From the NCBI GenBank assembly GCA_963717515.1, contig OY970338.1, positions 1,236,861 through 1,300,860 of the forward strand: DNA of 64,000 nucleotides, written 5' to 3'. This DNA is from an uncultured Candidatus Woesearchaeota archaeon. Lineage in GTDB: Archaea; Nanobdellota; Nanobdellia; Woesearchaeales; DSVV01. The notes under the pieces are model-generated. The model saw only the letters and a program-made list of their open reading frames with translations, had not been told where the DNA came from and did not search any database. Position numbers and translations under genes: made by a program. Below, in pieces: positions 17,396 to 46,843 of the stretch (its first letter is position 1; each line of letters begins with the position of its first letter).

Positions 17396-19012
17396 ATGGG
17401 GCTGAATCATTTTTTCATGCAATGGTATTACTGGGTCCTGCTTGCCATGTTTCTTGCCGTTGTCCTGCTCTTCATCTGGAACATCATCGCAGGCGCATTC
17501 AACAGGAAATGGTTCAATGCTTTTTCAGCAGTGCTCTTCATACTGATACTGTTTCTCGGTGCATACCTCCGCCATGTCAATGTAATGAACAATGACCCTG
17601 TGGAATCACTGTCGACAGAATACAAGCTGGGTGCGAAGACCTTCTACGAGAACCAGCAGTACAGGGTGTGCTACAGCGGGACGATCCATGACTGTGAGAT
17701 CCCCTATCAGCTGCCCAGGCATGTGCAGGGCTATCCCTTCCTCGTATCCCTGATGTATTATTTCACAGGATTCTCAGAGTATCTTGTCCACGTGTTCAAT
17801 GCTGTTGTCAGCATCCTCATAATTGTCCTTGCATATCTCCTGTCATATGCCTATTTCAGGGACAGGAAAACAGCGGTGCTCTCATCCCTGGGAGCAGCAG
17901 TCCTTCCTCTCATCATCGTATGGGGGACCACGGGCGAGGTGGTCATAACCAACATATTTTTCATTAGCCTCTCCCTGTTCTGCATCAAGATTGCCGCTGA
18001 TTCGAACGGCTTCTGGCAGTACATGCTCGCGTTTTTCACCTGCCTCTTCACAACGCACATGAGGGCTGAGAATGTCGTGCTCCTCCTGATCCTCGCATAT
18101 TTTTTTATCAGGGGCAATCATTCAAAGATCAAAAATCAGCTGGAAGGCGTTCCGAAACTTGGGCCAGCGAAGATTTCAATGCTTGGCATCGCCCTGCTCA
18201 TGTTCGTGTTCAACATCCTTTTTGTCAAATTCGCATCAGGTCAGCACGGCGGACTAGTGGGAGCGACGATAATCAGGGACATCAAAGTCCAGACCCTGTA
18301 CATCTTCGAGATATTGGCAGGGAAATACATGCTAGCTCTGAGCATTGGATTTATTTTGCTGCTGCTGGCAAAAAAATACAGGAAAAGCGCTTTGCCGTTA
18401 ATCCTGTTCTTCTTCATCCATCTCCTTATGGTGGTCTCGTTCCACCAGAATTTCCCGTCGGGTACAGACATCCATGCAGGCGCAGGAAACACAGAGAGAT
18501 ATTTCATGTCTGTGGCCCTTGTGCTGATAGTATGCGGAGTGCAGGGGCTGTGGTCTGCAGTTGAGAAAGCGGAAAAGGCAATCCGGCCATTCGCGGAGTT
18601 CAAGCAGGCAAGAACGATATGGAAGGTCTCTGCATTTATCCTTATTGGGCTGTATTTCCTCTCATTTGCAGGATTCTCTGTACACAGGATATCAGGTCCT
18701 TCTGGTACCTATTCGAATGTATCCTTCCGGAAAGTGATAGATGAGCTCAGGCCCGAAAAGCTCTATGTCAGCTCCTACGAGGTCGCGCAGTATGCCCAGG
18801 TCGTGACTGACGATGTCCCGGTGACAGTAGACAGGGATAAGGGCTCGTTGAGATTCTCAGGCAACAGGACAGGGGTGTATTACATCGAGCTGGTATCGGA
18901 ATATTTCCCTGAGAAATCCAGCGACTACCTGTCGAGCAGGGGGATTACGCCTGCTGAGAAGCACGGGGTATTCTGGTTCTACGACATCGATGGAAACTTT
19001 CATCAGCAATAA
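17396..19012 (+). CDS. GT-C fold membrane glycosyltransferase (ArnT/PMT family 39/83-like)
   Basis: 538 aa, about 11 TM segments followed by a soluble C-terminal domain. The architecture and GYPFLVSLMYYFTG resemble PMT_2/ArnT-type enzymes. It is a paralog of 48763..50280. Confidence 0.5.
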   Translation: MGLNHFFMQWYYWVLLAMFLAVVLLFIWNIIAGAFNRKWFNAFSAVLFILILFLGAYLRHVNVMNNDPVESLSTEYKLGAKTFYENQQYRVCYSGTIHDCEIPYQLPRHVQGYPFLVSLMYYFTGFSEYLVHVFNAVVSILIIVLAYLLSYAYFRDRKTAVLSSLGAAVLPLIIVWGTTGEVVITNIFFISLSLFCIKIAADSNGFWQYMLAFFTCLFTTHMRAENVVLLLILAYFFIRGNHSKIKNQLEGVPKLGPAKISMLGIALLMFVFNILFVKFASGQHGGLVGATIIRDIKVQTLYIFEILAGKYMLALSIGFILLLLAKKYRKSALPLILFFFIHLLMVVSFHQNFPSGTDIHAGAGNTERYFMSVALVLIVCGVQGLWSAVEKAEKAIRPFAEFKQARTIWKVSAFILIGLYFLSFAGFSVHRISGPSGTYSNVSFRKVIDELRPEKLYVSSYEVAQYAQVVTDDVPVTVDRDKGSLRFSGNRTGVYYIELVSEYFPEKSSDYLSSRGITPAEKHGVFWFYDIDGNFHQQ

Positions 19013-19033: not shown

Positions 19034-21031
19034 CTAGATATCATGGATGTTTTCCAGCCTTATCATGAAATCGACAAATCCGCTCATATCGTCCCTGTTC
19101 TGCTCAAGCGGTTCGGTCCTTATATCGACATGGCCGCCGAGCCTCTTCCAGTTCTCGATGCCTTTTATAGTCTGCTCAAAGCTCCCTCTTACCTGAGTAA
19201 TCTCATCATGAAAATCCGGCAGATGGCTGAACAGCTGGACTGAAATCCTATGCAAGCCAGTCCTTCTTAATTCTTTGCAGTATCTTTCAATTGACAGCAT
19301 TCTGGCGTTGGTATATAATATCACGTCAAGTCCAGCATCTTTCAGCCCCCTAATTATCAAAAACAGTGAATTAACCAGTGTCGGTTCCCCTCCACTTAAT
19401 ATGATTGTGCTGTATCTTCTCTTCAGATTTTTCATTTCTCCCACTATCTTGTCATAATTCCATATCTCATCAGCACAATCGTCAAAATATGACTTATTGT
19501 TGGATGATCTGATGAGATTGATCGTCTTTTGGGTCTTTTTCTTCATGTCACTATATCCTTTTAGAACGTATTGATATGCCTTCTGCTTGTCCCTGAACCT
19601 TTCAAATGCATAAAACAGCTCATAGGTGTTTGACCTGTAGTAGTCCTCTCCTATCTTCTTAAAAATGTTGAATAATTTTTTTAACTTGATGTTCCTGTAT
19701 GACTTCACAGTTTTCAGCTCTTCCCATGAATGGCCGCCGATCTCGTCATACGCGAATTCTCCGCTTGTCAGATGCCTGTGAGAGCCTACCCTGGAACGGA
19801 TCTTTATCCCGAACCTTTCCGGGTGCAGGAAAATCTCGGATTTTACAAGATAAAAATCACACACGTTCATCTGGTCGATGAAATCTATATTCTGAAGTAT
19901 GAAATCAAACGTGTCTTCAAAATCTTCCTCTGTTTCCTGCGGCAGGCCCACGATGATGTTCAATGAGACCCACATTCCGCATTCATGGGCCTTCTGGACA
20001 GCTTTCTTTGCAATATCGGATGTGTATCCCTTCCTTATCTTCTTGAGCATCCTGTTGCTTGCTGTTTCCAGCCCGAATGTGATATAGAACAGCCCGGACT
20101 TTCGCAACGGCGGCAGCAATCCTGTGTCAATATTGCATCTTGCGCTTCCGCACCACAAGAAATCCAGACCCTGCCTCACCATCTCCTGCGAAAGCTCCAG
20201 GGTTTTTTTTGTGTCAATCTCAATATAAGAGTTCAGGACAAAGAAGTATCTTGAATCGAATTTTTCAGACAACGCCTTCATCTCTTTTACAGTATTATCG
20301 ACGCTCTTGATGACCGGGGGCGGGCTGTCGCCTATGGAAGCACCGCAGAATGAGCACCTGTACGGGCAGTTCATCGACCAGAGGTAAGGTATTATGAATA
20401 TCCTGCCGGGGTTTCTGTAATAATAATATTCCGGTACATTCCTGTAACAATCAAAAGGGAGTCCTGTAAAATCAGGCATGGGTTTCGGAAAATCGCCGTC
20501 ACATCCCGTATCGTCATGGTCCTCACCCTTGATAAGCCTGAGTAATTGCCTTTCTCCCTGGCCTATAATCACTTCATCTATGAAATCGAATCTCTCTTTA
20601 AGGTCGCTGGTTGCGCTTTCTCCGCCAAATATTATCTTTGTCTTCTCGTCTCTGTCTTTGATACTCTTTGAGATCAACAATGCGTAATCCTTGGAAGAGC
20701 CTTCAATGATGGAGAATCCGATGGCGTCAAACCCTTCATAGTCAAGCTTGCTCAGCATAATTCCGGTCAGCTCATCCAGGATGGGGCTGGTCTTCCTGTC
20801 AAGAAGATAGTCTTCAAGCTCTTGTTGTGAATAGCTTTGCTGCAGCGACAACAACCTGATATAGCTTCTCTTATCACATATGAATCTTATCTCAAGATCG
20901 TCAAGGACTGATTTGTGGCCATGCATATTAAGATATGATGAGATATGGGCAATGCCTAACGGCGGTATCGAAATCAGACCCACTCCTTCATTGACAAAGT
21001 TCCTGGGCGGCATGACTAATTTTATTCTCAT
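19034..21031 (-). CDS. B12-binding radical SAM enzyme fused to a C-terminal rSAM-like domain lacking the cluster cysteines
   Basis: N-terminal cobalamin-binding-type domain (MRIKLVMPP...PPLGIAHISSYL), then rSAM CPYRCSFC. The C-terminal 190 aa or so align to the short rSAM paralogs (GGEPTL, YTNARML) but have SNNKSYFD where the paralogs have CNNRCIFC. Confidence 0.85.
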   Translation of the reverse strand: MRIKLVMPPRNFVNEGVGLISIPPLGIAHISSYLNMHGHKSVLDDLEIRFICDKRSYIRLLSLQQSYSQQELEDYLLDRKTSPILDELTGIMLSKLDYEGFDAIGFSIIEGSSKDYALLISKSIKDRDEKTKIIFGGESATSDLKERFDFIDEVIIGQGERQLLRLIKGEDHDDTGCDGDFPKPMPDFTGLPFDCYRNVPEYYYYRNPGRIFIIPYLWSMNCPYRCSFCGASIGDSPPPVIKSVDNTVKEMKALSEKFDSRYFFVLNSYIEIDTKKTLELSQEMVRQGLDFLWCGSARCNIDTGLLPPLRKSGLFYITFGLETASNRMLKKIRKGYTSDIAKKAVQKAHECGMWVSLNIIVGLPQETEEDFEDTFDFILQNIDFIDQMNVCDFYLVKSEIFLHPERFGIKIRSRVGSHRHLTSGEFAYDEIGGHSWEELKTVKSYRNIKLKKLFNIFKKIGEDYYRSNTYELFYAFERFRDKQKAYQYVLKGYSDMKKKTQKTINLIRSSNNKSYFDDCADEIWNYDKIVGEMKNLKRRYSTIILSGGEPTLVNSLFLIIRGLKDAGLDVILYTNARMLSIERYCKELRRTGLHRISVQLFSHLPDFHDEITQVRGSFEQTIKGIENWKRLGGHVDIRTEPLEQNRDDMSGFVDFMIRLENIHDI

Positions 21032-23341
21032 CTATATCTTCTCCGCAACCCGCTCTTTTCCCACAAAGAACAGCAAGTACGCGAACATCTCGATCTCATC
21101 CATCTTATTGATCCAGAATCCATCTTCATCCTCAGACAGGACTCCGAGCGCCTTGAGCGCCATAACTGCATGACTGAAATCCCTGCCAGGATTTCTGCCG
21201 AACCGAGACAAATAATCCACTTTATATAATCTGAACCCATGGACGAGATTGTTGACTATGTATTTAACTTTTTCGAAGTCCTTTGAATAGCTTGTAGCAT
21301 AATTAACCATTGCAGCTTCATTTGTCGGGAATTTTTTCAGGAAAATATGCTTATTGGAACCTTTGTTCATTATCTTGTAATCCAGGGAATAGGGTATAAT
21401 TGGGTTGGCATAGTAACCCAGCCCGAATACAGCATGCTGGTCGGAGCTGTGATGAAAATATTTGTACCGGCAAGGAGGCCTATAATTCTTGTTGAAGAAC
21501 TGTGTCGGATGGATGAATCCTAGCGTTTCATGGGCTTGCGCCCTGAAGCCTGCTTCATCAGCAATCCTGAATATGTCCCTTGAGACTGATTCATGGAGCT
21601 TGAAATAGAATTCATTGAACTTTTCAAGCGATTTGTAATTCTTGGTTATGTATTCCATATCAGTCATGATGGGATAGATGAATATTGAGTCAGGCCCGAA
21701 AGCTGCCAATTTCCTGAATGAACGGATGAATGCATCTTTATTATCACCCTTTAAGCCCAGAACAAGATCTGCATTCTTGGTCTGGATGCCTGCAACTCCC
21801 ATATCGTGCAAGGCATTCTTGACTGAGTCTATGTCCTGCACTGACCTGTTGTTCAGCCTTAGGACTTCTTCTGAGAGCGACTGAACGCCGATTGAAACTT
21901 TGTTGAATCCGATCTCTTTTGCTGTGCTGAGCTTTTCCAACGATGAAGTGCCGGGGTTGAATTCAATCACTTTCTGTGAGCTCTTATGGAATGCGAACCT
22001 GGAGAACAATCTGCCGAACAACACCTTCATCTGCAGGACAGAGAGAAGCGAGGGTGTCCCTCCCCCTGCATAGAACGACCTGAATTCCACGCCTGAAAAT
22101 ACTTCCGAGTACTCGTCTATTTTCCTCATCAGGTACTTAACATATCTATCCATGCTCCTGCTGTCATAGCCTGTGGAGGGGTAAATACAATATGAGCACA
22201 TGCTTGTGCAGAAGGGTATGCTCAGATAGAAATCATACTGGATCTTGCCGTCATTGTTTTCCTGTATGAACTTTTTCCATGCATCCCTGACTTGCCCTTC
22301 GCTCAGCTCCCCTATGTCCTCTCTCAGGAACATATCATGGATTGTTTCGAAGCTGTTCCTGAAATCCACCTTTTCCTGGACATTTTTGTAAAATTCAAGC
22401 TCAGCCTGATACTGTTCCCTGTTTCTGTTCTCACCATATTTTGTTGATTTCGATACCGGCTTGAGCTCATCGAACCCGTACAGCTTCACGTATCCTTCAA
22501 ACAGCCCGCCGCAGACAGGGTCATATATGCAGTCCTTGCATGCTTCTCCCTTTATCTTGCCGTCCTCGACGTGCCTTACCCTGCTCCCGCTCTCGCGCTC
22601 AAGCTCCCATCGGCTGTCCTTGAGCAAAAGCTCACCGCAGCAGTCTTCATAACCTCTCAAAAAACACGGTGGGATAGAGCAGCCTGTGAATGAGAAGCCC
22701 ATGCCATTCTTCCTACAGTAGTCAAGTGCATTCCTGAGATAAGGGACTGCTTCTGATATCTTAGGGACTATCCATCTGTTCTTCCAGGCATTGCCCGCAG
22801 GCATGACAAATGAGAATGTGATATGCAGCTTTCCGAACTTGTTGTAGATGAACTTCACAAACTCAAGGATTTCCTTGTAGTTCTCCTTGTTTATCACAAA
22901 GCTTATGTCAGTCCGGATGCCCGTATCGACGAAACTGCTTATGGCTCTTGTGCTCTTATCAAACCCACCAGGCACCCTGGTCAGCCTGTCTGATACCTCT
23001 TTTTTATGGGAATGAAGAGATACAAGGACATTATCGATACCTGATTCTTTTACTTTTTCTGCAAAACCAGGGATGGATGCCACAAGCCCGTTTGTGCAGA
23101 GAGTTATCTTCGACGGTTTTCTTTGCCTGACCAACCTGGCAATCCGGAAAAGGTTTCTGCTGATGGTCGGTTCTCCGCCATCAATCACTACTTCTGTCCC
23201 TTTTTCAATAGAGCTGATGGTCTTTATCAGCATGCCAATAGAAGGGTCTGTCCTGTTGACATCCTCTCTGTCATAGGAACAGAACAGGCAGTTCTGGTTG
23301 CAGAGTTCAGTCAGGAACAATTGCTTTATTGATCTTTTCAA
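21032..23341 (-). CDS. Tandem double radical SAM protein: short 'CNQNCLFC' rSAM with C-terminal Cys module, fused to a HemN/HemZ-like rSAM
   Basis: Domain 1 has ELCNQNCLFCS, DGGEPT, IPPCFLRGYEDCC and CKDCIYDPVCGG. Domain 2 has IPFCTSMCSYCIYP and FYAGGGTPSLL, typical of oxygen-independent coproporphyrinogen-oxidase-like enzymes. Confidence 0.85.
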   Translation of the reverse strand: MKRSIKQLFLTELCNQNCLFCSYDREDVNRTDPSIGMLIKTISSIEKGTEVVIDGGEPTISRNLFRIARLVRQRKPSKITLCTNGLVASIPGFAEKVKESGIDNVLVSLHSHKKEVSDRLTRVPGGFDKSTRAISSFVDTGIRTDISFVINKENYKEILEFVKFIYNKFGKLHITFSFVMPAGNAWKNRWIVPKISEAVPYLRNALDYCRKNGMGFSFTGCSIPPCFLRGYEDCCGELLLKDSRWELERESGSRVRHVEDGKIKGEACKDCIYDPVCGGLFEGYVKLYGFDELKPVSKSTKYGENRNREQYQAELEFYKNVQEKVDFRNSFETIHDMFLREDIGELSEGQVRDAWKKFIQENNDGKIQYDFYLSIPFCTSMCSYCIYPSTGYDSRSMDRYVKYLMRKIDEYSEVFSGVEFRSFYAGGGTPSLLSVLQMKVLFGRLFSRFAFHKSSQKVIEFNPGTSSLEKLSTAKEIGFNKVSIGVQSLSEEVLRLNNRSVQDIDSVKNALHDMGVAGIQTKNADLVLGLKGDNKDAFIRSFRKLAAFGPDSIFIYPIMTDMEYITKNYKSLEKFNEFYFKLHESVSRDIFRIADEAGFRAQAHETLGFIHPTQFFNKNYRPPCRYKYFHHSSDQHAVFGLGYYANPIIPYSLDYKIMNKGSNKHIFLKKFPTNEAAMVNYATSYSKDFEKVKYIVNNLVHGFRLYKVDYLSRFGRNPGRDFSHAVMALKALGVLSEDEDGFWINKMDEIEMFAYLLFFVGKERVAEKI

Positions 23342-25150
23342 TTACATCACCGAGCTTGTCGAATACAGGATATATCTCTTTATGGCTGAACACTTCTGCA
23401 TAATTTTCCGGCACCCCGAAACATATCTTCTTGAGCGTGCAGACCGAACACGGCTCATAGAAATTGTTCTGGCGCACCCCGTCATGGCTCATGTTGTCGT
23501 CGAAATGGAGATATGAACTTTTTGTGTTCCTTACTATCTCCATGGATGGCGCGGAATATTCCTCGTATCCCCTGAGATAGCAGAGCGGCATCCTGTCGAC
23601 GACAGCCTTCAGCCTGTTGTTTTTAATGTATTCCAGTGCCCTGTAGACCCCTAGCTCTGAATCGCTCATCTTCACGAGTGGCTCCATGTTCTTTTTCGCC
23701 TGGTTCACAGGGTCTATGAAAATGAAGTTGAACATGCCCATGTCAGGATATCTCTTGTGCAGGAACCTTACATGCTCAAGAAGGTGCTTATGGTTGTATG
23801 AACATATGACTATGCCGAAACTGAGCTTCTCTCTTTTCCATGAATGTATGCTGTCCATCGCCTTCAATGCAAGGCCGTAATCCTTTGCAGAGCCTGTTAT
23901 GGTCTCATAGAGCTTCCTGTCTGATGCATGGAACGAGACGAGAAAGTCGATATCAAAGGCGTCAATGAGGCGCTTGAAAAAGCTCCTGCTCGACAGCAGG
24001 GTGCCGTTTGTCTGTAGGATAATCTTATGGATGCCTTTTTGTTTGCAGTAATTCAGAAATTTCGGCAGGTCTTTGTTGAGAGTAGGCTCTCCGCCTGTCA
24101 GGGTCAGATTCGTAGCACCTCTCATGATTGCGTAATCAAGCTTTTTTTTAGCTCGGAAAAAGGCATTGTCGTATTGTCGCAAGTAACAGAGCAAAATGCA
24201 CATTTCTGATTGCACCTGTTGTCTATCTGGAGGATGATATGGTCCTGCTTCTTGAGCCTGGGCACAAGCTCCTTGTCGCCGTGAATATTGATATAGTTCT
24301 GGTTCAGCCCGGGGCACCTGGGCTCAAGCTCGCATTCAGAGCACACGTCCGGCTTTGAATAATAGTTGGCCCTCCTGTTTATGCTCCCTTCCTCGAGCAG
24401 ACCTGTGAATGACGGCTCGTCGAATGCCTCTCTCCTGACCTCGCTGCAGTATTCCTCGAAGCCAGGCAGGAAACAGAGCGGGACAAACTCGATCCTGAAT
24501 CCCATGCCCCTGTCCAGGATGTACTGGAATGCCTCGAGCATATGGGGCTTTGCATCAGTGAGCCTTGGCACTATCCACTTGTTCTTCATGGCGTTATTCG
24601 TGGGGTCGACAAAATTATAGCTGAAATGCCTGATATGCGGAAAATTCTTTTCTGAAAATATCACCATGTCCTGAAGATCCCTGTAGTTCAGCGCATTGAT
24701 GACAGTCGTGAAATACGCATGGATCCTGTATTTCTCCACATTCTTCACACCTCTGCAGAACTGGTCAAAATCTCCGTCCCCCCGGGAAAGCTTTGGAAAT
24801 ATATCTTTTTTATTGGTATGATAGGAGATGTCGAACTTGTCAAGCCCTGACTTGATATATGCCTTAAGCAGTTTTTCATCATGGAGCCTGGAGGCATTTG
24901 TCTGCACAGAGACCTCTTCAAATCCCTGGGCCTTTGCATACCTGATGAGTTCTGGCAGGTCATCCCTGAGAGTGGGCTCTCCGCCTGTGAACATCACTTC
25001 TGTCACATCCTCTTTTTTGAGGTCGTCGATTGTCTTTTTTGCCTCTTCAAATGACAGCTCTGCATCCGAGTTCGGTGCTGAGCAGAACACGCAGTCCTGG
25101 TTGCACTTCCTGCTGACCTGCACAGTCCCAAGCACATGCCTTTTTTTCAT
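23307..25150 (-). CDS. Tandem double radical SAM protein interrupted by a -1 frameshift at an A8 run (track ORFs 24122..25150 and 23307..24317)
   Basis: Domain 1 has RKCNQDCVFCS, FTGGEPTL, VPLCFLPGFEEYC and CSECELEPRCPG. Domain 2 starts in the same frame (DNRCNQKCAFCS...MPFSELKK) and continues only in the -1 frame (KLDYAIMRGATNLTLTGGEPTL...MPLCYLRGYEEY...CSVCTLKKICFG). The Cys-motif to GGEPT spacing across the shift is 30 aa, against 32 aa in domain 1. Confidence 0.75.
24142..24149 (-). other. A8 homopolymer (T8 on the plus strand) at the frameshift point; A-AAA-AAA-type slippery run
   Basis: The minus strand reads gag cta aaa aaa agc ttg. Shifting -1 after the lysine codons gives aag ctt gat tac, which restores the second rSAM domain. 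Confidence 0.8.
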
Positions 25151-25659
25151 TTTATAACCTTGATCAGCTCCAGGAACTTATCCTGGGAAAATCGTTTCTC
25201 TCTGCTGTCCCGCCATCCTGTCACCAGCTTCTCAAGATTGAAGATCCCTTTCTCGAAAAGCTCAAACTCCCCGACAGCCCTCAGTGAGAATAATAGCTCT
25301 ACCCAAGGGGTTATGTCATCCTTTTCATACGAGAGGCTTTCGACAAAAAACCCCGCACTGAGTATGAAATCGTCGAAGATGTAATACATGTTCCCTATCA
25401 ATGAATAGAACAGGCCGATGGTCCTGTCAAGACCCGAATCTCCTGTCCTCTTCCTCTCGGTCAGGAGCATCCTGAGTATCTCCCGCGCCTCACCGATGGC
25501 CTTTTCAAGCTCATCGTTTTTCTGGAACCTGAGGCAGAGGTTGTAAGAGAATATCTCATCATGAGGCTCTCCAAGGCCATACGGGATGGGCCTTCTGTCT
25601 ATCGGAAACCCCAAAGTCCTTTCGAGTTCAGCAATCCTATCCGATATCATGTAGTCCAT
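25147..25659 (-). CDS. Hypothetical protein, predicted helical, embedded in the rSAM operon
   Basis: 170-aa ORF with 4-nt overlap to the downstream rSAM gene and a 1-nt gap to the upstream gene. No motif recognised. Confidence 0.5.
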   Translation of the reverse strand: MDYMISDRIAELERTLGFPIDRRPIPYGLGEPHDEIFSYNLCLRFQKNDELEKAIGEAREILRMLLTERKRTGDSGLDRTIGLFYSLIGNMYYIFDDFILSAGFFVESLSYEKDDITPWVELLFSLRAVGEFELFEKGIFNLEKLVTGWRDSREKRFSQDKFLELIKVIK

Positions 25660-25660
25660 C

Positions 25661-26626
25661 TTAATCGAAATCGAGCATGAACCAGCCTTCTTTTCTATCG
25701 ACCGTTTTTATGGTCCTGTTCCCCTTGCAGATCTTGAGCTTGCCGTCTTTTTCCAGTATCCTGTCGCCTTTCCTGACTAAGTCATAGAAACCGACAGTGT
25801 CTTCCGGCCTGGCAGGGTTGTCGATGTAGACGCTGTCCCTGTATCTTATCTCATCGCCTTTCATGTTCCCGTCGAACATCATGAAATTCCTCTCCCCGAA
25901 CACAAGAAGAGGCCTTTTTAGGAGCTCCCGGGTCTTTTTCACGAATCCCGGCTCGGCATCCATAATCCTGTTTTCGACATCAGCCGCATAGGCGATCGTA
26001 TTCTCGCACCTGTATGAACACGGTATGTGATGTATGTAGAAGAATGTCTTGTCCATCAGGAAATTGTTGCAGAGATATGAGCCTTTTGCCCCTTTTCCGT
26101 CATATTCTGTATTCTTGTACGTCTCATGCGGGTGGCTGTAGAGTCTCCAGTTGTTGTATCTCCTGAAGAAATCCACGCAGCAGTCCGGGAACCCGAGAAG
26201 CCTGCCGAACCTCAGATGGTCGACAAAGGGCTTGTTTATGCTCCGGTTGCCTATGACGACGGAATACCAGCCGAATTTTTTTGCCTTCAGCGCATCTTCC
26301 CTGGAATCTGATACGAACACATGGACCTCTCCTTCTTTCATCTTTTCATGGAACCGCTCCCCTACCTGGAAAGTGGTCGTGATATTCTCAGCACCGACAA
26401 TGCCTGCCTTGCCGGTCTTCGGTGTCCTGAATACAACATCTGTCTCGATAAAGAGCCCATAATCTTTGCAGATATTCCTGAACTCGTCAAAGACATTCAC
26501 GTCGATCCAGTCATCATAGCTTCTTTTCACTCCGAGCGCAGCAGCCACAAACATAGGGTACTGGTCTGAGTTCTTCAGCCTGACGTACTCTTTTGCGAAT
26601 TTTTTCGGTACATACTGCCCAATCAT
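25661..26626 (-). CDS. Conserved-looking hypothetical protein with GFPDCC and HHIPCSYRC motifs
   Basis: 321-aa ORF overlapping the upstream rSAM gene by 4 nt. The Cys pattern LLGFPDCCVDFF ... YIHHIPCSYRCENT recalls an archaeal DUF family, but I cannot name it with certainty. Confidence 0.55.
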   Translation of the reverse strand: MIGQYVPKKFAKEYVRLKNSDQYPMFVAAALGVKRSYDDWIDVNVFDEFRNICKDYGLFIETDVVFRTPKTGKAGIVGAENITTTFQVGERFHEKMKEGEVHVFVSDSREDALKAKKFGWYSVVIGNRSINKPFVDHLRFGRLLGFPDCCVDFFRRYNNWRLYSHPHETYKNTEYDGKGAKGSYLCNNFLMDKTFFYIHHIPCSYRCENTIAYAADVENRIMDAEPGFVKKTRELLKRPLLVFGERNFMMFDGNMKGDEIRYRDSVYIDNPARPEDTVGFYDLVRKGDRILEKDGKLKICKGNRTIKTVDRKEGWFMLDFD

Positions 26627-27516
26627 CTTTTCACAGCGACAAACTCGTCGCTTCCCCTCCTCTCCGGATACTCTTTCCAGGGCCCCTCGCAGACATTGTC
26701 ATATTTGCACTCTTTGCACTGGGGGAATTTCATCTTTCCCTCTGTCCTGCGGGTATTCTCAAAAGACGGGTCATAGGAGTTCACATCCCTTATCTCTGTC
26801 TCAGGCATGTAGAATTCAGAGCAGTATCTCTCATAGCCTTCCATCATGCAGAAAGGCATTGCCTCTGCCATCACCTTGACACCCGCATCTATGCCTATCT
26901 GCAGACCCTTTTTTATGTAGGGTGATGCAAGGCTCACCCATGGCATCATCTGGTCATAATTATCCATAGCATTGCCCACAGCATGCATGAAGGCGAACTG
27001 GTACTGGTCGACGCCGAGGTCCACGAGGAGCTTTGCGATTTCAGGGAGGTACCTGTAATTCGGCTTCACGACGACAGTGTTGGTTATTATGTACTGGTCC
27101 AGCTCCCTCAGGTTCCTTATCGCCCTGGTTGTCTGCAGGAATGAGCCTTGCCCGCGGGTCAGGTAATCATGAAGCTCTGGGATGTGGCCATGGAGCGCCG
27201 GGCCGAATTCATTGACGCCTGCCTTTATCAGTTCCCTGCAGTAGTCCCTGTACTGGAGCATGCGGACATTGCTCTGGAGCTGGATTCTATCGAATCCCAG
27301 GCATTTTGCATGCCTCACAAGGTCGAGGAGGTCGTCTCTTATGGTTACTTCCCCACCTGTGAATACCACTCCTGTGCAGCCGGTCTTTTTTGCATCTTCA
27401 AGATCTTTCTTTATGTCTCCTGTCTTCCTGTTGCCGAACCTCTTCTTGTGCGCCTGGACGCAGAACAGACAGTTGTTGTTGCATAGAAACCCAGTCTTAA
27501 TATCGACCCTTTTCAT
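26623..27516 (-). CDS. Radical SAM enzyme, short family with C-terminal Cys module (candidate HxsC-like partner)
   Basis: Contains GFLCNNNCLFCVQ, FTGGEVT, MPFCMMEGYERYC and CKECKYDNVCEGPW. It is the first gene of the minus-strand operon, divergent from the Hxs-like genes. Confidence 0.85.
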   Translation of the reverse strand: MKRVDIKTGFLCNNNCLFCVQAHKKRFGNRKTGDIKKDLEDAKKTGCTGVVFTGGEVTIRDDLLDLVRHAKCLGFDRIQLQSNVRMLQYRDYCRELIKAGVNEFGPALHGHIPELHDYLTRGQGSFLQTTRAIRNLRELDQYIITNTVVVKPNYRYLPEIAKLLVDLGVDQYQFAFMHAVGNAMDNYDQMMPWVSLASPYIKKGLQIGIDAGVKVMAEAMPFCMMEGYERYCSEFYMPETEIRDVNSYDPSFENTRRTEGKMKFPQCKECKYDNVCEGPWKEYPERRGSDEFVAVKR

Positions 27517-27667
27517 TGACTGGTGAATATCAGCATATCTTATAAAACTTTGGGATTAGATGTTTGTATTTCAAAAAGATTTAAATATTTCCCGTGATTT
27601 TACCATTTTCATGCCAGACGTGTCTATGCAGGGAAACCTGGAGATAAACAAGAAAGAGGGGTTTGTG
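27517..27667. promoter_or_regulatory. Divergent promoter region between the rSAM operon and the Hxs-like genes
   Basis: TTTAAATA at 27590-27597 faces the plus strand. TTTTATAAGATA on the minus strand (about 27537-27548) lies roughly 20-32 nt upstream of the minus-strand ATG at 27516. A GAGGGG SD-like motif precedes the ATG at 27668. Confidence 0.3.
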
Positions 27668-28129
27668 ATGGTCTCTGTGAATCCGAAGATATATCCGCTT
27701 GACGTCGTCCTCTCATCCTCATACATGTTCACTGACAAGAACTATGTCCTTGTTGACGGAGACCCGGAGGAGGAGCTGATTGTCGAGCTCAGGCCGAAAG
27801 ACAAAAATGCCGACATAGAGAAGCTCGGCAGGGACTTCAACAACGAGCTCATCAATTATGCTAATTATGCAGTACGGGCGATACAGAACCAGGGGATGCG
27901 GGAAGCCATAATCCACAGGGTGCTCATGACAAATTCAGCAGGCAGACCGGATTACAGGCAGCCTGTTGAAGAATATCCTGCTGCTGATGAAGAGCTCCTT
28001 GAAGTCGATGCAAAGCCTTGGATAAAATCAGACGAGAAATCAGAGGCCGACTCGCCATGGTTTGACGACCCTGAGGGGATCGCTGTTCCCTGGGAGGAGA
28101 AATATGGGGATAAAGGTAAGAAAAAATAA
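27668..28129 (+). CDS. HxsD-like small protein with acidic C-terminal tail (start uncertain; track ORF begins at 27560)
   Basis: MVSVNPKIYPLDVVLSSSYMFTDKNYVLVDG...GRDFNNELINYANYAVRA resembles the layout and the LLNDYxLRE-type motif I recall for HxsD. Alternative ATGs lie at 27560, 27611 and 27626. Confidence 0.45.
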   Translation: MVSVNPKIYPLDVVLSSSYMFTDKNYVLVDGDPEEELIVELRPKDKNADIEKLGRDFNNELINYANYAVRAIQNQGMREAIIHRVLMTNSAGRPDYRQPVEEYPAADEELLEVDAKPWIKSDEKSEADSPWFDDPEGIAVPWEEKYGDKGKKK

Positions 28130-28319
28130 TGTTCTTGTAAGGCTCAACGAGGAAATCTACTGCAGGGAATGCATTGAGCAGGCTATCAAGGATTTCAAGG
28201 ACGTATGCACAGTGACTGAGAATGAAGACGGCCTCCTGCTCAAGCCAAAGGCGAAGATCGAGCCTGTGAGGCTGGGTTATGAATTTTCCAATTATGTTCT
28301 AGGGCTCATGAAGAATTAG
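28104..28319 (+). CDS. Second HxsD-like small protein
   Basis: 71 aa from the ATG at 28104, preceded by GGAGGAG. It reads VLVRLNEEIYCRECIEQAIKDFKDVC...GYEFSNYVLGLMKN, with the same architecture as the upstream gene. Confidence 0.45.
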   Translation: MGIKVRKNNVLVRLNEEIYCRECIEQAIKDFKDVCTVTENEDGLLLKPKAKIEPVRLGYEFSNYVLGLMKN

Positions 28320-28324
28320 TGAAG

Positions 28325-29704
28325 ATGGCGATAAGTTATTTCGGGGACAAGGAGCAGTATGTACTGAACCATTACAGGTCGAGAGAGATCAAGGCAGGCC
28401 ATCTGGTGACCAATGACTACGGCTCTTGGGCGTTGCTTTCTCCTGATGAATACGCACAGCTCAGGACAGGGGACATCCAGGAGCCTCTTCTGACTCTTCT
28501 GAAGGATAAGGGGATTGTACTTGACAGGGGAAATTTTGCAAATGTCATCGATGATTACAGGAGGAAATGCGACTATCTCTTCATCGGCACTTCGCTCCAT
28601 ATTGTTGTCCCGACCCTGAGATGCAACTTGAAGTGCATTTACTGCCATGCAAGGGCCAAGAGCAGCAGGGCCAAGGGCTATGACATGGATGAAAAAACTG
28701 CGAAAAAAACCATTGATTTCATCTTCCAGAGCCCGACAGGATACATCACCATAGAATTCCAGGGGGGCGAGCCCCTGCTCAGGTTTGACCTCATCAAATA
28801 CATTATTGAATATGCAAAAGAGAAGAACAAGTCCCATAAGAAGGAGCTCCATTGGAGTGTGGTCACTAACCTTACCCATATGACTGATGAGATGTTTGAA
28901 TATTTCAAGAAGAACGGTGTCGGCATATGCACATCCCTTGACGGCCCTAAGGTTGTGCATGATGCAAACAGGCAGATGCATAGCAAGACCAGGAAATGGA
29001 TAAAGAAGATTGTTGATTCTTATACTATCAATGCAATGCTCCTTGCGACAAGGAACACACTGCCATACCCAAAGGAGATAGTTGATGAGTACATCAGCCT
29101 GGGCCTTCCGAGGATATGGATCAAGCCTGTGAACAACCTCGGCGATGCTGAGGGGAACTGGAAGAAGATCGGCATGACTGCAGCAGAATACCTTGATTTC
29201 TGGACAGAGGCGATGGATTATATCGTTACCAAGAACATCGAAGGGGTCCGGATTGAGGAAAATTATACCAAGATAATCCTGAGGAAGATACTGACAAAGG
29301 AATGCGTGAATTTCACAGACCTTGAAAGCCCATGCGGGGCTGCAATCGGCCAGCTCGCGTACAGCTACAACGGAAACATCCATACGTGCGATGAGGCAAG
29401 GCTGTTTGAGATGTTCAAGCTCGGGACAGTGGATGACAGATACAGCGATATAGTCACATCTCCAGGCGCATGTGCAATCACGAGGGCATCGATCAATGAC
29501 AATCCTGTGTGCGAGATGTGCGCCTACAAGCCTATATGCGGACTCTGCCCTGTGTGCAGTTATGCAGAGACAGGAAATATCATATCGAAGCTGCCGAACA
29601 GGCGCTGTGAGATACTTATCGGCATGTTCGACTACATATTTGAAAAGCTTGCTTCTGAAGAAAAATACAGGAAAGTTTTCTTCAGCTGGATAGGGAAAGA
29701 ATAA
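28325..29704 (+). CDS. Radical SAM/SPASM maturase (HxsB-like; anaerobic sulfatase maturase superfamily)
   Basis: About 90-aa N-terminal extension, then RCNLKCIYCHA and FQGGEPLL. The SPASM region is CGAAIGQLAYSYNGNIHTCDE ... CEMCAYKPICGLCPVCSY. The track ORF starts at GTG 28319, and the ATG is at 28325. Confidence 0.85.
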   Translation: MAISYFGDKEQYVLNHYRSREIKAGHLVTNDYGSWALLSPDEYAQLRTGDIQEPLLTLLKDKGIVLDRGNFANVIDDYRRKCDYLFIGTSLHIVVPTLRCNLKCIYCHARAKSSRAKGYDMDEKTAKKTIDFIFQSPTGYITIEFQGGEPLLRFDLIKYIIEYAKEKNKSHKKELHWSVVTNLTHMTDEMFEYFKKNGVGICTSLDGPKVVHDANRQMHSKTRKWIKKIVDSYTINAMLLATRNTLPYPKEIVDEYISLGLPRIWIKPVNNLGDAEGNWKKIGMTAAEYLDFWTEAMDYIVTKNIEGVRIEENYTKIILRKILTKECVNFTDLESPCGAAIGQLAYSYNGNIHTCDEARLFEMFKLGTVDDRYSDIVTSPGACAITRASINDNPVCEMCAYKPICGLCPVCSYAETGNIISKLPNRRCEILIGMFDYIFEKLASEEKYRKVFFSWIGKE

Positions 29705-29719
29705 TCCAATTCCAAAAAG

Positions 29720-29727
29720 TATAAATA
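29720..29727 (+). promoter_or_regulatory. TATA-box-like element upstream of the His-Xaa-Ser repeat gene
   Basis: TATAAATA lies 35-42 nt upstream of the ATG at 29762. This suggests the repeat gene has its own promoter and a very short 5' UTR. Confidence 0.3.
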
Positions 29728-29761
29728 TGGCTATGATTATAATATTGAAAAAAAGAGTAAA

Positions 29762-30661
29762 ATGCTGCCGATATTAAAAAAAAAGATAACAGGTTTCATA
29801 CTTAGTGAAGAGGGCAGGATGCCCAAGCAGTCTCTTCTTGCCATGGGCTCATTCCTTTCTGCAGCAGTCATCGGAGGTATTCTTGCGACAAGGGACAATG
29901 CTGCAAGCCATGTGAACAGCCTTGACATCAGGTATGGCACTTCCGAGGGATTAGGGGCTGAGGAGTCCAGGGGATATCATGACCATCATGCAAGCCACAG
30001 TTCACACGGTTCACATAGCAGTCATGGCTCGCATAGTTCACACGGTTCACACAGTTCCCATGGCAGCCATGGGAGTCATACAAGCCATAGCAGTCATGGT
30101 TCGCATAGTTCACACGGTTCACACAGTTCCCATGGCAGCCATGGGAGTCATACAAGCCATAGCAGTCATGGTTCGCATAGTTCACACGGTTCACACAGTT
30201 CCCATGGCAGCCATGGGAGTCATACAAGCCATAGCAGCCATGGTTCGCATAGCTCCCACTCAAGCCATGGTTCCCACAGCAGCCATAGTTCTCACAGCTC
30301 CCACTCAAGCCATGGTTCCCACAGCAGCCATAGTTCTCACAGCTCCCACTCAAGCCATGGTTCCCACAGCAGCCATAGTTCGCATAGCTCCCACTCAAGC
30401 CATGGTTCCCACAGCAGCCATGGTTCTCACAGTTCTCATGGAAGCCACAGCAGTCATGGTTCTCATAGTAGTCACGGGAGTCATACAAGCCATGGTTCTC
30501 ATAGTTCTCATGGCAGTCACTCAAGCCATGGAAGTCATAGCTCGCATGGGAGTCATGCGAGCGGTGGTGGTGGTGGTAGCGACGGCAGTTGTGGTACATC
30601 AGATGGCGATGCTGGCGGTGGCGGTGGCGATGGCGGTGCTAGTTGTGGTTGTGGATATTAG
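29762..30661 (+). CDS. His-Xaa-Ser repeat protein (HxsA-like): N-terminal hydrophobic segment, 64 HxS triplets, Gly/Asp/Cys tail
   Basis: - aa 1-75 contain SLLAMGSFLSAAVIGGILA.
- aa 76-267 are 64 consecutive H-[SGTA]-S triplets (29987-30562).
- The tail is GGGGGSDGSCGTSDGDAGGGGGDGGASCGCGY. Confidence 0.8.
   Translation: MLPILKKKITGFILSEEGRMPKQSLLAMGSFLSAAVIGGILATRDNAASHVNSLDIRYGTSEGLGAEESRGYHDHHASHSSHGSHSSHGSHSSHGSHSSHGSHGSHTSHSSHGSHSSHGSHSSHGSHGSHTSHSSHGSHSSHGSHSSHGSHGSHTSHSSHGSHSSHSSHGSHSSHSSHSSHSSHGSHSSHSSHSSHSSHGSHSSHSSHSSHSSHGSHSSHGSHSSHGSHSSHGSHSSHGSHTSHGSHSSHGSHSSHGSHSSHGSHASGGGGGSDGSCGTSDGDAGGGGGDGGASCGCGY
30041..30256 (+). repeat. 72-bp tandem repeat x3 inside the HxS gene
   Basis: The units 30041-30112 and 30113-30184 are identical. 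The third unit (30185-30256) differs only near its end. Each unit encodes 24 aa. Confidence 0.9.
30251..30430 (+). repeat. 45-bp tandem repeat x4 inside the HxS gene
   Basis: agctcccactcaagccatggttcccacagcagccatagttctcac occurs at 30251-30295 and again, identical, at 30296-30340. The units at 30341-30385 and 30386-30430 carry 1-3 substitutions. Each unit encodes 15 aa. Confidence 0.9.
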
Positions 30662-30761
30662 ATAATGAATTATAATTTTTTCAAAATTATTAGATTTACC
30701 ACTTTGTAGGGGTATTAATTTCGAAACATTTATAAATTATTAAATATTATTAGTAAAAATA

Positions 30762-31838
30762 ATGATGATGGAAATACATTCAAAAAAATTATATACGCAA
30801 TTAATATTAAACATTATGTCCTTTTTCTATATTGGTTGTACTACAACTGGACCAACCAAACCAAATGTTAATATCTTTTCTAATCCGAATGAAACAGGAA
30901 AATCAGTTGCAAGAATGCAAGAAACTTTTTCAGTTGCTAATGAAGTCTTATTTGAGTTAACACAACAAAATCCGTTAATCACAAGCGAGTTAGGTAAATT
31001 ACCTGAACTTCAGGATGGAATTTCTAAATCTGAATTAATATCACTTGAGAAAATTGTAAATATATATAAAAATAACAAAAAAAAATTTGAAGAAGCATTT
31101 AGCCAGATGTATCAAGTGGGAAAACCTAATTTCAGGAAATATTGTTCACCATTACAGGCGTTTTTTTGGCTTATTGAAGACGGTAAAGTAAATATCGCTC
31201 AAGATACAATAAAAAATTATTCTCTTGATAATTTGCTGGAGAATTCATGGGATTTCCGGTTAAAGACAATTACTTTTTCAGATGACCAAATCTCATCAAT
31301 CATTGAAAATACCAGTGATAACAAATGGCAAAAATTATACAAAGAGAATGTTTCCGACAAGAATTTTTTACAAAGATTGATATTGATGAAATATGAAAAA
31401 AATCCGGGAATATATAATGGTAAAGCTAAAAATATAATTAAAGATGAATTATCAAATCAGCAAGATGATAAATGGTCTAATTTTGATAAAGTTTCAATAA
31501 GATTAAATTCACCTGAATTGATTGATTTTTGGACTCAAAAAAATTTAACCTATTCTTTTTATTTAGGTACTATGAAATCAAACCAATCAATTTTTAAATC
31601 AAAAAATGGAAATTGTGAAGATACATCAAGTTTCATAGTTAATTTATTGAGAAAAGCTGGATATGAAGCAAACACTTTGGATGTAGTGTCAAAGGACCCT
31701 AATGTACCATTCCACGTGATTGTTAAATACCAGATAAATGATAGTTTTTATCTTATGGATAACGGGACTTTTATTCCGGCAGGAATTATGGGCCCTTTCA
31801 AATCAATGAAAGAAAGCAGCTATAAACTTCATTATTAG
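30762..31838 (+). CDS. Lipoprotein-like protein with C-terminal transglutaminase-like Cys-protease core
   Basis: N-terminal hydrophobic segment ending in FFYIGC. The C-terminal NGNCEDTSSFIVNLLRKAGYEAN ... FHVIVKY ... LMDNG fits the Cys-His-Asp transglutaminase-like pattern. Confidence 0.55.
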   Translation: MMMEIHSKKLYTQLILNIMSFFYIGCTTTGPTKPNVNIFSNPNETGKSVARMQETFSVANEVLFELTQQNPLITSELGKLPELQDGISKSELISLEKIVNIYKNNKKKFEEAFSQMYQVGKPNFRKYCSPLQAFFWLIEDGKVNIAQDTIKNYSLDNLLENSWDFRLKTITFSDDQISSIIENTSDNKWQKLYKENVSDKNFLQRLILMKYEKNPGIYNGKAKNIIKDELSNQQDDKWSNFDKVSIRLNSPELIDFWTQKNLTYSFYLGTMKSNQSIFKSKNGNCEDTSSFIVNLLRKAGYEANTLDVVSKDPNVPFHVIVKYQINDSFYLMDNGTFIPAGIMGPFKSMKESSYKLHY

Positions 31839-31883
31839 CTTTCTCATTTTCTATTTTATCATAAAGTTTATTTTTTTAATAAA

Positions 31884-33077
31884 TCATCTTTCATACTGAA
31901 CAAACTGCTTCTCAATAAAATCAACATATTCTTTAAATCTCTCATATTTTTGAGAAAAATGATATGCGTTCTTACCTAATTTTTTGACTATTTCAGGATT
32001 GTCGATGACATATTCCATCTTTTTACTGAAACCATCTATGTCTCTCGGGTCTATAATAAGGATATCTTCATTATCTCTTAAAGTTGAATAAATGCCTTTT
32101 TTCAAGACACCTTTTCCGATTATCGTGCATACACCGCAGGCCATTGATTCCCTAGCTATTTTTGGGTAATGGGTTCCTATTGGCAGATATGGGGATTCTT
32201 CTGATTCAGGGCACAGAACGCATGTTGATGCCCGAATCAAAGAGGGTATCTTCCATGGCGGTTGAAAAGGCAAAAAAATACATTCCTCACTTAGACCTAT
32301 CATTTCAGCTTTCTTTTTCAGTTCATCAACTTTCTGACCTTCACCAACGACAAAGAGCAGCCTGAAATCCTTCTTGATTTTTTCAGAAGCCTTAAGGATT
32401 GAATAAGTCTGTTTCAACCTCGATATCTTACCAAAATATGTGAATATCGGGATGGATGGGTCGTCAATATAAGTTGATAGGTCGTATGGCTTCACATCTG
32501 GATTAAAGAATTCAGGATTAATCAGCTGTTCAACACCATGTAGTTTATTTGTTTCAATTTTATTCTCTTTCAATATCTTCGAGACATTGCCACCTCCAAA
32601 TACTTTATCTGCTTCCCTAAATGCCTCAACGAAGATTGTCTTTAGATTTTTCGAATAGTACAGTTTCCCAACATCTGAACCAGCACATTTGAGGACATGC
32701 GGTACTTTTGTGATTTTTTTCAAGAGGTAACCTACTATACCATAAGGAAGTGTATAATGCGAATATATGAGATCAATTTCCTGTTTTCTGATAAGGTTTA
32801 TTGACAAATTCAATAATTTTTCACAGAAATATTTTGATCTGAGAATCGGCGAATTAAAATCAGGTGCTGTACTGAAAACTTTTACATTTGTCGGTTCAAT
32901 AAATCTATTCTCATCCTCTGAAATCAGTTCACGAAATTCAGATTCGACTTCCCATGCATTGGTAATAATGCTGATTTCATGCCCTCTCTGTCCGAGTTCC
33001 CGAGCAAGCCAGTACGTATCTGAGGATACGCCTCCCTGGATGGGCGGGTATTTACTGAGAATGCATATTTTCATCAA
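31884..33077 (-). CDS. GT4-family (GT-B) glycosyltransferase
   Basis: MKICILSKYPPIQGGVSSDTYWLARELGQRGHEISIITN is the N-terminus typical of GT4 enzymes. The C-terminal region has the acidic E...E motif (PESEESPYLPIGTHYPKIARESMACG). Confidence 0.75.
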   Translation of the reverse strand: MMKICILSKYPPIQGGVSSDTYWLARELGQRGHEISIITNAWEVESEFRELISEDENRFIEPTNVKVFSTAPDFNSPILRSKYFCEKLLNLSINLIRKQEIDLIYSHYTLPYGIVGYLLKKITKVPHVLKCAGSDVGKLYYSKNLKTIFVEAFREADKVFGGGNVSKILKENKIETNKLHGVEQLINPEFFNPDVKPYDLSTYIDDPSIPIFTYFGKISRLKQTYSILKASEKIKKDFRLLFVVGEGQKVDELKKKAEMIGLSEECIFLPFQPPWKIPSLIRASTCVLCPESEESPYLPIGTHYPKIARESMACGVCTIIGKGVLKKGIYSTLRDNEDILIIDPRDIDGFSKKMEYVIDNPEIVKKLGKNAYHFSQKYERFKEYVDFIEKQFVQYER

Positions 33078-33127
33078 AATATAAAATACAATAATGTTTA
33101 TATAATTTGCTTAATTCTGATATCATA

Positions 33128-34249: not shown

Positions 34250-35126
34250 ATTTCCAGGCAGGATAATCAATGCAAGCAAAAGACCCCGGGGTCAGGGGAT
34301 TGATTTATGCTTCCGATGCAATAACAGATGCATTTTCTGTTATGACAATCATAAGAGAAATGATATCTCTGACAAACCCTTGGAGCAAGCAAAAAAAGAT
34401 GTATTGGCCTTAAAGAAGAAAGGAATAAATATCATTTCTCTAAGAGGCAGTGAACCTACTATCTATCCTCATATCTATCAGCTTGTCAGCTTTATCAATA
34501 ATCATGGCCTGAAATTCAGGATGACGACGAATGCCCGGATATTTTCATATGTCGAGACAGCTAAAAAATTTGCATCATTAGGTCTTGATAATGTCTATGT
34601 TTCCCTGCATTCTCATAAGGCAGATATACATGACAAACTGACTCAGACAAAAGGCAGTTTCGATCAGACCTTAAAAGGAATTAAAAATTTGCTCGCTTCT
34701 GGTGTCAGAGTTGAGACCAATACAACGATTTTAAAGCAGAATGTGGAAGATCTACCAAAGATTACACAACTGTTGTCACGATATGGCTTGTTTAGGGCGA
34801 GGTTTTCTTTCCTTTTCTGTGAGGGTGTTGGCTTGGATATAGGGTGGTGGAAAAAACTAATGCCTTCCATTGCCGAGACCCGGGAAAGCCTGTCTGAAGC
34901 AATGAACATCTTTCAGGTGAGAGGCATATACTCTTTTATTGAGAAACTGCCAATATGCGGTGCACCACAATATTATCGTGATTTCAAGCCTGAGGATTAT
35001 GTAATTGCCGCAAACATCAAGCCGGAAATATGCCAAAAATGTGCTTATCACAAAGATAACTATTGTGTCGGAGTCAGTCCCATGTATCTGAAAATGTATG
35101 GGGAAAAAGACCTGATACCTCAATGA
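34236..35126 (+). CDS. Radical SAM enzyme, short family with C-terminal Cys module
   Basis: Contains CFRCNNRCIFCYD, LRGSEPT, TTNARIF, LPICGAPQYY and CQKCAYHKDNYCVG. The internal ATG at 34236 overlaps the upstream gene by 14 nt; the track start is 34188. Confidence 0.8.
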   Translation: MQNHKFPGRIINASKRPRGQGIDLCFRCNNRCIFCYDNHKRNDISDKPLEQAKKDVLALKKKGINIISLRGSEPTIYPHIYQLVSFINNHGLKFRMTTNARIFSYVETAKKFASLGLDNVYVSLHSHKADIHDKLTQTKGSFDQTLKGIKNLLASGVRVETNTTILKQNVEDLPKITQLLSRYGLFRARFSFLFCEGVGLDIGWWKKLMPSIAETRESLSEAMNIFQVRGIYSFIEKLPICGAPQYYRDFKPEDYVIAANIKPEICQKCAYHKDNYCVGVSPMYLKMYGEKDLIPQ

Positions 35127-46791: not shown

Positions 46792-46843
46792 AGTATGTAA
46801 ATTTTAAGTAATATTTTTAAGCATTAGTTCATTCTCGTCTATA

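Follow-up and report, generated by a model that had tools for sequence, protein, structure and literature searches.

Among the described systems closest to the genes examined here is the HXS antiphage system of Pseudomonadota, E. coli included, which is encoded as HxsD-HxsB-HxsC-HxsA (TIGR03976-03979; Li et al., Nat Commun 2026, PMC13128918). The four-gene E. coli system blocks phage DNA entry; HxsB, HxsC and HxsD are all needed for the processing of HxsA and for a +8 Da modification of that protein, and HxsC binds HxsD (PMC13128918). The modification is undefined and has not yet been reconstituted in vitro. All four proteins in that study are single-domain, and fusions and archaeal forms are not described there (PMC13128918). 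We analyzed a 64,000-nucleotide stretch of DNA (‘the window’) from an uncultured Candidatus Woesearchaeota archaeon (GenBank assembly GCA_963717515.1, contig OY970338.1, positions 1,236,861 to 1,300,860 of the forward strand), in which two consecutive minus-strand genes each encode a pair of radical S-adenosylmethionine (rSAM) domains: one for a 769-residue protein (21032..23341) and a second, the ‘tandem gene’, at 23307..25150. In our assessment both loci probably encode genuine multi-domain rSAM enzymes, and the six-gene minus-strand operon that contains them (19034-27516) probably serves as the tailoring half of a His-Xaa-Ser (Hxs) system of the HxsA4 type in a Woesearchaeota-like DPANN archaeon.

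A second point of comparison is FbiC, the fused CofG-CofH FO synthase of F420 biosynthesis, the two domains of which are separate proteins in other organisms. Like FbiC, the fusions in the window place two complete rSAM domains on one chain, occur as separate proteins elsewhere and would belong to one pathway; unlike them, FbiC is built from rSAM subfamilies unrelated to theirs, makes a small-molecule cofactor and has no auxiliary-cluster tails. A literature search for proteins with tandem or dual rSAM domains, and for Woesearchaeota rSAM fusions, returned a mention of FbiC as an enzyme with ‘two radical SAM domains’ (PMC11917521) and otherwise unrelated papers only.

The open reading frame (ORF) listing and translation show the 769-residue protein to be encoded in one uninterrupted frame, with the following parts:

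21032..23341, minus strand: 769-aa fusion protein, one ORF with a TTG start at 23341
22448..23341, minus strand: domain ‘c’ (aa 1-298), an HxsC-like rSAM core with a 4-Cys auxiliary-cluster tail
22424-22447, minus strand: disordered linker (aa 299-306), pLDDT <50 in the AlphaFold2 model
21035..22423, minus strand: HemN-like rSAM domain (aa 307-769), recognized with NCBIfam and Foldseek

Domain c contains CNQNCLFC (C14/C18/C21), GGEPT (residues 55-59) and the Cys tail PPC226 ... C268xxC271x5C277 (PPC...CKDCIYDPVC). The NCBIfam HxsC model TIGR03977 matches residues 6-282 with 102 bits, and a custom HxsC-like hidden Markov model (HMM) covers aa 1-298. In the AlphaFold2 model the domain has high pLDDT (predicted local distance difference test) values, and its Foldseek neighbors are SkfB, GDGT-MAS, BlsE, SuiB, anSME and MoaA. 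Like the SPASM/twitch maturases (anSME, SkfB, SuiB) and BlsE, MoaA and viperin-type enzymes, the HxsC-like domains combine a partial TIM barrel with a C-terminal Cys-cluster module; unlike those enzymes, to which they are 15-20% identical, they have a shorter 4-Cys tail and no RRE domain.

The C-terminal half of the protein contains C378xxxC382xxC385 (CTSMCSYC) and GGGTPS, and is matched over residues 345-740 by the HemN, HemZ and STM4012 models, the nearest being the STM4012 family NF006067 (153 bits) and TIGR00538 HemN scoring 118 bits. Foldseek aligned it with E. coli HemN (1OLT), a class C rSAM enzyme, with an E value of 1e-22 and a TM-score of 0.74 on the target across 439 columns. The half is predicted to be HemN-like by fold, CxxxCxxC and GGGTPS; unlike HemN itself, it lacks the fourth cysteine of the HemN motif CxxxCxxCxC (CSYCIY), falls below every family cut-off (118 versus 325 bits for TIGR00538 and 153 versus 380 for NF006067) and is joined to an HxsC-like domain. 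The model of the whole protein has a mean pLDDT of 86.7 and a predicted TM-score (pTM) of 0.62, with residues 299-306 as the sole low-confidence inter-domain segment, and Pfam Radical_SAM (PF04055) matches the protein in two stretches with 130.8 bits. The single frame, the HMM matches, the AlphaFold2 model and collinear fused homologs together bear out the initial annotation of this ORF as a short-family rSAM domain with its Cys module followed by a HemN-like rSAM domain.

The only 100%-identical database protein, P0001, comes from this same genome, as would be expected if the 769-aa ORF were an artefact, whether through an overlooked stop, a chimeric join or the merging of two genes. We regard this as extremely improbable, given that the ORF is uninterrupted, that composition is smooth across the gene, and that P0002 (799 aa, from Logan contig L009), which is 47% identical and collinear across 790 columns, keeps both the linker and the HemN-like domain's N-terminal extension. 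Among the best 150 cluster representatives from the search described below, which come from many samples, 12 clusters run from HxsC-like to HemN-like, 14 run in reverse and 3 are three-domain proteins. Fused, collinear homologs sit on independent contigs (NCBI, JGI, ENA, Logan), which indicates that neither missed stops nor assembly joins, both of which had been allowed for when the fusions were first noted, account for them; those homologs that carry names belong to Woesearchaeota and Nanoarchaeia metagenome-assembled genomes. When peptide patterns derived from the 769-aa alignment were used to scan species genomes, three distant single-domain matches were the only result, which was uninformative.

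The start of the 769-aa gene overlaps the upstream gene by 35 nt, and the TTG at 23341 has GGTGAT 4 nt upstream. P0002, the collinear homolog, retains the Cys motif at its N-terminus and so supports this start. The public gene call P0001 (733 aa; the difference concerns window 23233-23341, minus strand) begins at Met37, by which the first CxxxCxxC is lost. We also considered, and rejected, the idea that the tandem gene and the 769-aa gene were once one four-domain gene: in L009 another gene separates the two.

The tandem gene had been annotated as a single gene fusing two short-family rSAM domains. All of the motifs listed for it are present in 23307..25150 (two CxxxCxxC, two GGEPT and two PxC...CxxCx5C), and that part of the description stands; the single gene frame does not, as the interval is divided between an ORF of 342 aa (24122..25150) and one of 336 aa (23307..24317), which are in different frames and share 196 nt. 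Its features are as follows:

24122..25150, minus strand: ORF1 (342 aa), with domain ‘a’ complete (aa 1-300) and the opening 36 residues of domain ‘b’; 6 residues out of frame precede the stop
24142..24149, minus strand: A8 homopolymer (cta-aaa-aaa-agc), the site of the frame break; A9 or a -1 shift restores the frame
23307..24143, minus strand: rest of domain ‘b’ in the -1 frame (278 open codons), with GGEPT, the core and a PLC...CSVCTLKKIC tail

The break falls after the second CxxxCxxC, which belongs to domain b (NRCNQKCAFC) and lies in ORF1, and before the second GGEPT; the stop follows 8 codons beyond the run. If the run gains one A or the frame shifts by -1, the result is a tandem protein of 614 aa reading ...SELKKKLDYAIMRGATNLTLTGGEPT..., in which a peptide across the join would contain ...SELKKKLDYAIM.... 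PF04055 scores 99.7 bits on ORF1 and 48.1 bits on ORF2, where the match begins at profile position 34 because the Cys motif of domain b sits in the other frame. Each of the four domains of the two genes has a CxxxCxxC and a GGE-type motif and scores above the gathering threshold of this radical SAM superfamily profile. The best NCBIfam matches of both halves of the tandem gene are HxsC and HxsC4, at scores well under the cut-offs: for TIGR03977 HxsC, 102 (c), 106 (a) and 62 bits (b) versus 267.9, and for NF038332 HxsC4, 97-101 bits for domains c and a and 74 for the b remainder (ORF2) versus 500. By these scores domains a, b and c are best classed as HxsC-like rather than as members of HxsC.

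An uninterrupted ortholog of 629 aa in L009 is 52% identical over 621 aa to the read-through tandem protein and is collinear across the break site; because of this homolog, we take the tandem gene to have been ancestrally one HxsC-like fusion ORF, which appears frame-broken in this assembly. When 20 tandem homologs are aligned, the two Cys triads, the two GGE motifs and the two Cys tails prove invariant or almost so. We modelled an intact tandem homolog, P0025, instead of the frame-broken copy in the window, and obtained two repeats of the same module with a linker disordered at 308-316 (pLDDT 87.8, pTM 0.54). HMM parsing and the two AlphaFold2 models thus agree with the initial annotation that both loci encode two complete rSAM domains, which are predicted to be separately folded units on a disordered linker of 8-9 residues.

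As to the cause of the frame break, we slightly favor a homopolymer-length miscall in the assembly, a reading drawn from comparisons within the genome and with homologs. ABCE1 is essential in archaea. The sole ABCE1/RLI gene of this genome (C1:1536353-1538102, outside the window) is split exactly at a 9-nt G/C homopolymer (C1:1537193), with ABCE1 profile positions 1-304 and 303-590 lying in two frames. This break, which came to light when ten flagged homopolymer sites were inspected by eye, almost certainly marks a homopolymer-length error in the assembly, and it makes an assembly error the likeliest explanation for the A8 run as well. Domain b also appears undecayed, since its 278 codons are open and since the read-through protein keeps 45 of the 47 positions that are at least 90% conserved in the 20 tandem homologs, including 14 of the 16 past the break.

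Two observations pull in the other direction. Genome-wide, frame-break signatures occur at 3.5% of 8-mers against a background of 2.5-4%; as frame breaks are not enriched at long homopolymers, assembly errors are rare. There is also decay nearby, which makes a real frameshift plausible: the adjacent B12-binding fusion gene ends in a domain, ‘d’, that has lost all three cluster cysteines (SSNNKSYFD) where its L009 ortholog (670 aa, 47% identity) has KCNNKCEFC, and an rSAM pseudogene with in-frame stops lies at 43848-44849. A real, recent mutation would leave a 342-aa protein with an intact domain a and a dead domain b, its Cys triad and barrel lying in different frames, in an operon that is shedding modules; the genus-mate G003, which is without any a-b gene, would fit such a course. 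Set against the otherwise undamaged domain b and the demonstrable homopolymer break in the single essential ABCE1 gene, we consider a recent mutation possible but somewhat unlikely. No close ortholog of the tandem gene was found in three genus-mates, where the best match is a 39%-identical HemN-a fusion, so that the A-run cannot be compared across strains.

A further possibility is that A-AAA-AAA is a working -1 recoding site, at which ribosomal or transcriptional slippage would yield ‘a-only’ and full a-b proteins in a set ratio. The run does provide a zero-frame X-XXY-YYZ heptamer, the -1 product is exactly the conserved fusion, and -1 frameshifting at A-AAA-AAT is documented for fucA1 of the archaeon Saccharolobus. 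The same heptamer, however, arises automatically when one A is deleted from CTA-AAA-AAA-AAG. Of the features of a programmed -1 frameshift (a heptamer with a stimulator, conserved in orthologs) we found the heptamer only: no stable RNA structure lies downstream of the A-run (z -0.77), the L009 ortholog is in frame without an A-run, and 20 of the 20 tandem homologs are in frame. A working recoding site is in our view improbable.

To place the fusions among their relatives we relied on an exhaustive search of 1.84 billion cluster representatives (50% identity), of which the best 150 were parsed with custom HxsC-like (C) and HemN-like (H) HMMs. The ranking favors multi-domain proteins, and the counts demonstrate recurrence rather than frequencies. 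Tandem C-C proteins account for 60 representatives, HxsC/HemN two-domain proteins for 26 (14 H-C and 12 C-H) and proteins with three or more domains for 12 (8 C-C-C, and 1 each of C-C-H, C-H-C, H-C-C and C-C-C-C); H alone was found in 26, C alone in 21 and H-H in 2. Proteins with two rSAM cores, which had been called uncommon at the outset, are so among characterized enzymes; inside the HxsC-like family double and triple rSAM fusions, though uncharacterized, appear to be frequent. In a domain tree the first domain of the tandem gene falls into a clade (support 0.97) in which 17 of 19 members occur in a-b, x-a, a-HemN or HemN-a fusions. Subfamily ‘a’ is thus nearly always fused, whether to ‘b’, to another HxsC-like domain or to a HemN-like domain on either side.

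The same domain types also occur in other orders and apart. G003, from the same genus (contig L010/L049), has e297, x321 and x170 homologs (described below) with a single 294-aa rSAM protein and a HemN-a fusion where the window has a-b and then c-HemN. In G013 and G006, of the same family, free-standing HemN-like genes lie beside free-standing HxsC-like and B12 rSAM genes. That the same domain types are fused in other orders and are found as split neighbors is a Rosetta-stone pattern, which argues that the domains work together. Homologs are accordingly neither always split, which would have spoken against the fusions, nor always fused; the split versions show that fusion is not obligatory, and the earlier suggestion of ‘obligate’ sequential or processive radical steps on one substrate is a conjecture.

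The remaining genes of the operon, and those that flank it, are:

19034..21031, minus strand: third fusion, 665 aa, a B12-binding rSAM domain with a C-terminal truncated HxsC-like domain ‘d’ (about 19034-19483)
25147-25659, minus strand: x170 (unknown protein), between e297 and the tandem gene
25661-26626, minus strand: x321 (DUF483-like, unknown protein), between e297 and the tandem gene
26623..27516, minus strand: e297, a single HxsC4-like rSAM protein, NF038332 167 bits (cut-off 500)
27560-28129, plus strand: HxsD-like protein, HxsD 45 bits (cut-off 50)
28062-28319, plus strand: HxsD-related small protein, 85 aa, HxsD_rel 55.6 bits (cut-off 41)
28319-29704, plus strand: HxsB, TIGR03978 434 bits (cut-off 370)
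29762-30661, plus strand: HxsA4-type repeat protein, 299 aa, 96 bits (cut-off 55)
16126-17241, plus strand: prepilin-type peptidase (A24/Arc_PepC), convergent on the operon end
17396-19012, plus strand: PMT_2 glycosyltransferase, convergent on the operon end

The Hxs core (27560..30661, plus strand) is divergent from the minus-strand operon, and its HxsA4-type protein has a hydrophobic N-terminus and about 64 H-x-S units. The components of an Hxs system are present at the locus, with the HxsC-type partner represented by sub-threshold relatives only. The best-conserved rSAM protein of the cluster is e297 (62-77% identity in four other loci), which is probably the core HxsC counterpart. The homologous clusters L036 and L042 both combine e297 with an a-HemN fusion, the peptidase, HxsD, the small protein, HxsB and a short HxS peptide; the prepilin-type peptidase and PMT_2 families are also found in both, and PMT_2 in L010, L038 and L040 as well. 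The x170/x321 pair is conserved beside ‘a’-type fusions in L010, L040 and L043.

Like the E. coli HXS system, the window encodes an HxsB above cut-off, small proteins of the HxsD type, a His-Xaa-Ser repeat protein that is exported and HxsC-like rSAM domains that have a second Cys cluster. It differs in that the host is archaeal, that its HxsA is an A4-type protein of 64 repeats lacking a peptidoglycan-binding domain, and that the one HxsC is replaced by six intact HxsC-like, HemN-like and B12 rSAM domains and one Cys-less domain, mostly in paired fusions; the window also adds the prepilin peptidase, PMT_2, x321 and x170. With respect to the NCBIfam HxsA4, HxsC4 and HxsD-like variants (NF038313, NF038332, NF038315), HxsA and the 85-aa protein exceed the cut-offs and e297 best matches HxsC4, whereas e297 and all of the fused domains, at 97-167 bits, remain far from the HxsC4 cut-off of 500. 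PADLOC reported nothing beyond generic viperin-type rSAM similarity.

Each HxsC-like domain (a, b and c) has its own CxxxCxxC and GGE motifs for a SAM cluster and its own 4-Cys tail, and the HemN-like domain has CxxxCxxC and GGGTPS; judged by motif content, each domain is predicted to be an independent SAM-cleaving core. Each would then bind its own [4Fe-4S] cluster or clusters and cleave SAM independently, giving a probable load of three clusters in the 769-aa protein and four in the tandem protein. By fusion, enzymes that modify one substrate one after another would be kept close together and in a set stoichiometry. The substrate is most probably the exported HxS protein with its 64 repeats, and HxsB, the HxsD proteins, e297, x321 and x170 may all take part in its maturation, with the HemN-like and B12 domains probably adding class-C-type and class-B-type (methyl or related) chemistry.

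What ties the fusion genes to Hxs is co-location, at this locus and in L010, L036 and L042, and several findings weigh against the proposed assignment and mechanism. All of the HxsC-like domains score below the HxsC and HxsC4 cut-offs, the best HxsC score genome-wide being 155 bits. The pTM values of the two AlphaFold2 models (0.54-0.62) indicate no defined inter-domain interface. Some ‘a’-type tandem genes with x321/x170 lie in glycan-type neighborhoods with no Hxs genes within 10 kb (L040, L043), which means that the substrate might not be HxsA. The fused enzymes could instead act on a sugar-nucleotide, a lipid-linked glycan or a protein-attached glycan in a cell-surface glycoconjugate pathway. 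Next to these genes PMT_2 is a conserved neighbor, both here and in L010, L036, L038 and L040; genes for CDP-alcohol transferase, epimerase, GT2 and DegT are found in L009, L036 and L043; relatives in the a/b clade are fused to Gfo/Idh/MocA oxidoreductase or glycosyltransferase domains; and the Foldseek neighbors include BlsE, DesII and viperin-like enzymes. Yet L036 and L042 resemble the window in carrying HxsB, HxsD, an HxS-repeat gene and the prepilin-type peptidase, together with their a-HemN fusion; L010, in which the order is HemN-a, has HxsB and HxsD; the HMMs that match best are HxsC and HxsC4; and in E. coli HxsC acts on HxsA (PMC13128918). A glycan substrate consequently seems unlikely to us, and the HxS protein remains our preferred candidate.

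A more far-reaching proposal is that ‘a’ domains are the hub module of an undescribed multi-rSAM assembly line, welded by evolution in every order to HxsC-like, HemN-like and x321-type modules. In it the fusions would assemble into a physical complex working its way along the 64 His-x-Ser units of a single exported protein, and in this genome A-AAA-AAA would set the ratio of ‘a-only’ to ‘a-b’ protein through -1 slippage. We offer this as a speculation, and a rather doubtful one.

Several other features of the related loci and of the genome were recorded. The x321/x170 pair accompanies ‘a’-type fusions even where no Hxs genes are near (L040 13481-14986; L043 13377-14844), and in L042 (4413-7268) a 951-aa protein carries two rSAM domains followed by an x321-like domain. 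In L036 (16017-19619) and L042 (16145-19612) the short HxS peptide gene is immediately followed by a gene for a protein of 1155-1200 aa, which has one HxsC-like domain, part of another and a B12-rSAM domain. At about 30700-48700 of the window, G+C falls abruptly from ~47% to 30-38%. This AT-rich island contains more HxsC-like and SPASM rSAM genes (33107-34249, 34188-35126 and 36226-37116, the last with the genome-best HxsC score of 155 bits) along with glycosyltransferases, and also the decayed rSAM gene at 43848-44849 (minus strand), which is in three pieces with an in-frame TAG and TAA, CNINCIFC and TDGEPF still being readable. A second HxsD-like/HxsB-like pair with another HxsC-like rSAM gene lies about 21-25 kb past the window end (C1:1321357-1326100). 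The genome is a single contig of 1.84 Mb. Archaeal-type L3 and L4, together with an Arc_PepC peptidase and a tRNA that has an intron, identify the organism as an archaeon. Aragorn found only 10 tRNAs in the 1.84 Mb, and the tRNA in the window (11718-11815, plus strand; Rfam) is 98 nt long; most tRNAs of the genome probably carry introns.

These results carry a practical warning, in that this closed assembly carries homopolymer frame breaks and the P0001 gene call drops the first cluster motif. Expression and reconstitution may be simpler for a single chain in which the stoichiometry is fixed at 1:1 than for separate subunits of low abundance. The fusion patterns identify modules that work together: ‘a’ with ‘b’, ‘a’ or ‘c’ with a HemN-like domain, and B12 with ‘d’. 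We conclude that both genes are part of an enlarged archaeal variant of the known Hxs system, and that the archaeal, CPR and Omnitrophota versions have many more rSAM domains, often fused, than the four-protein system studied to date.

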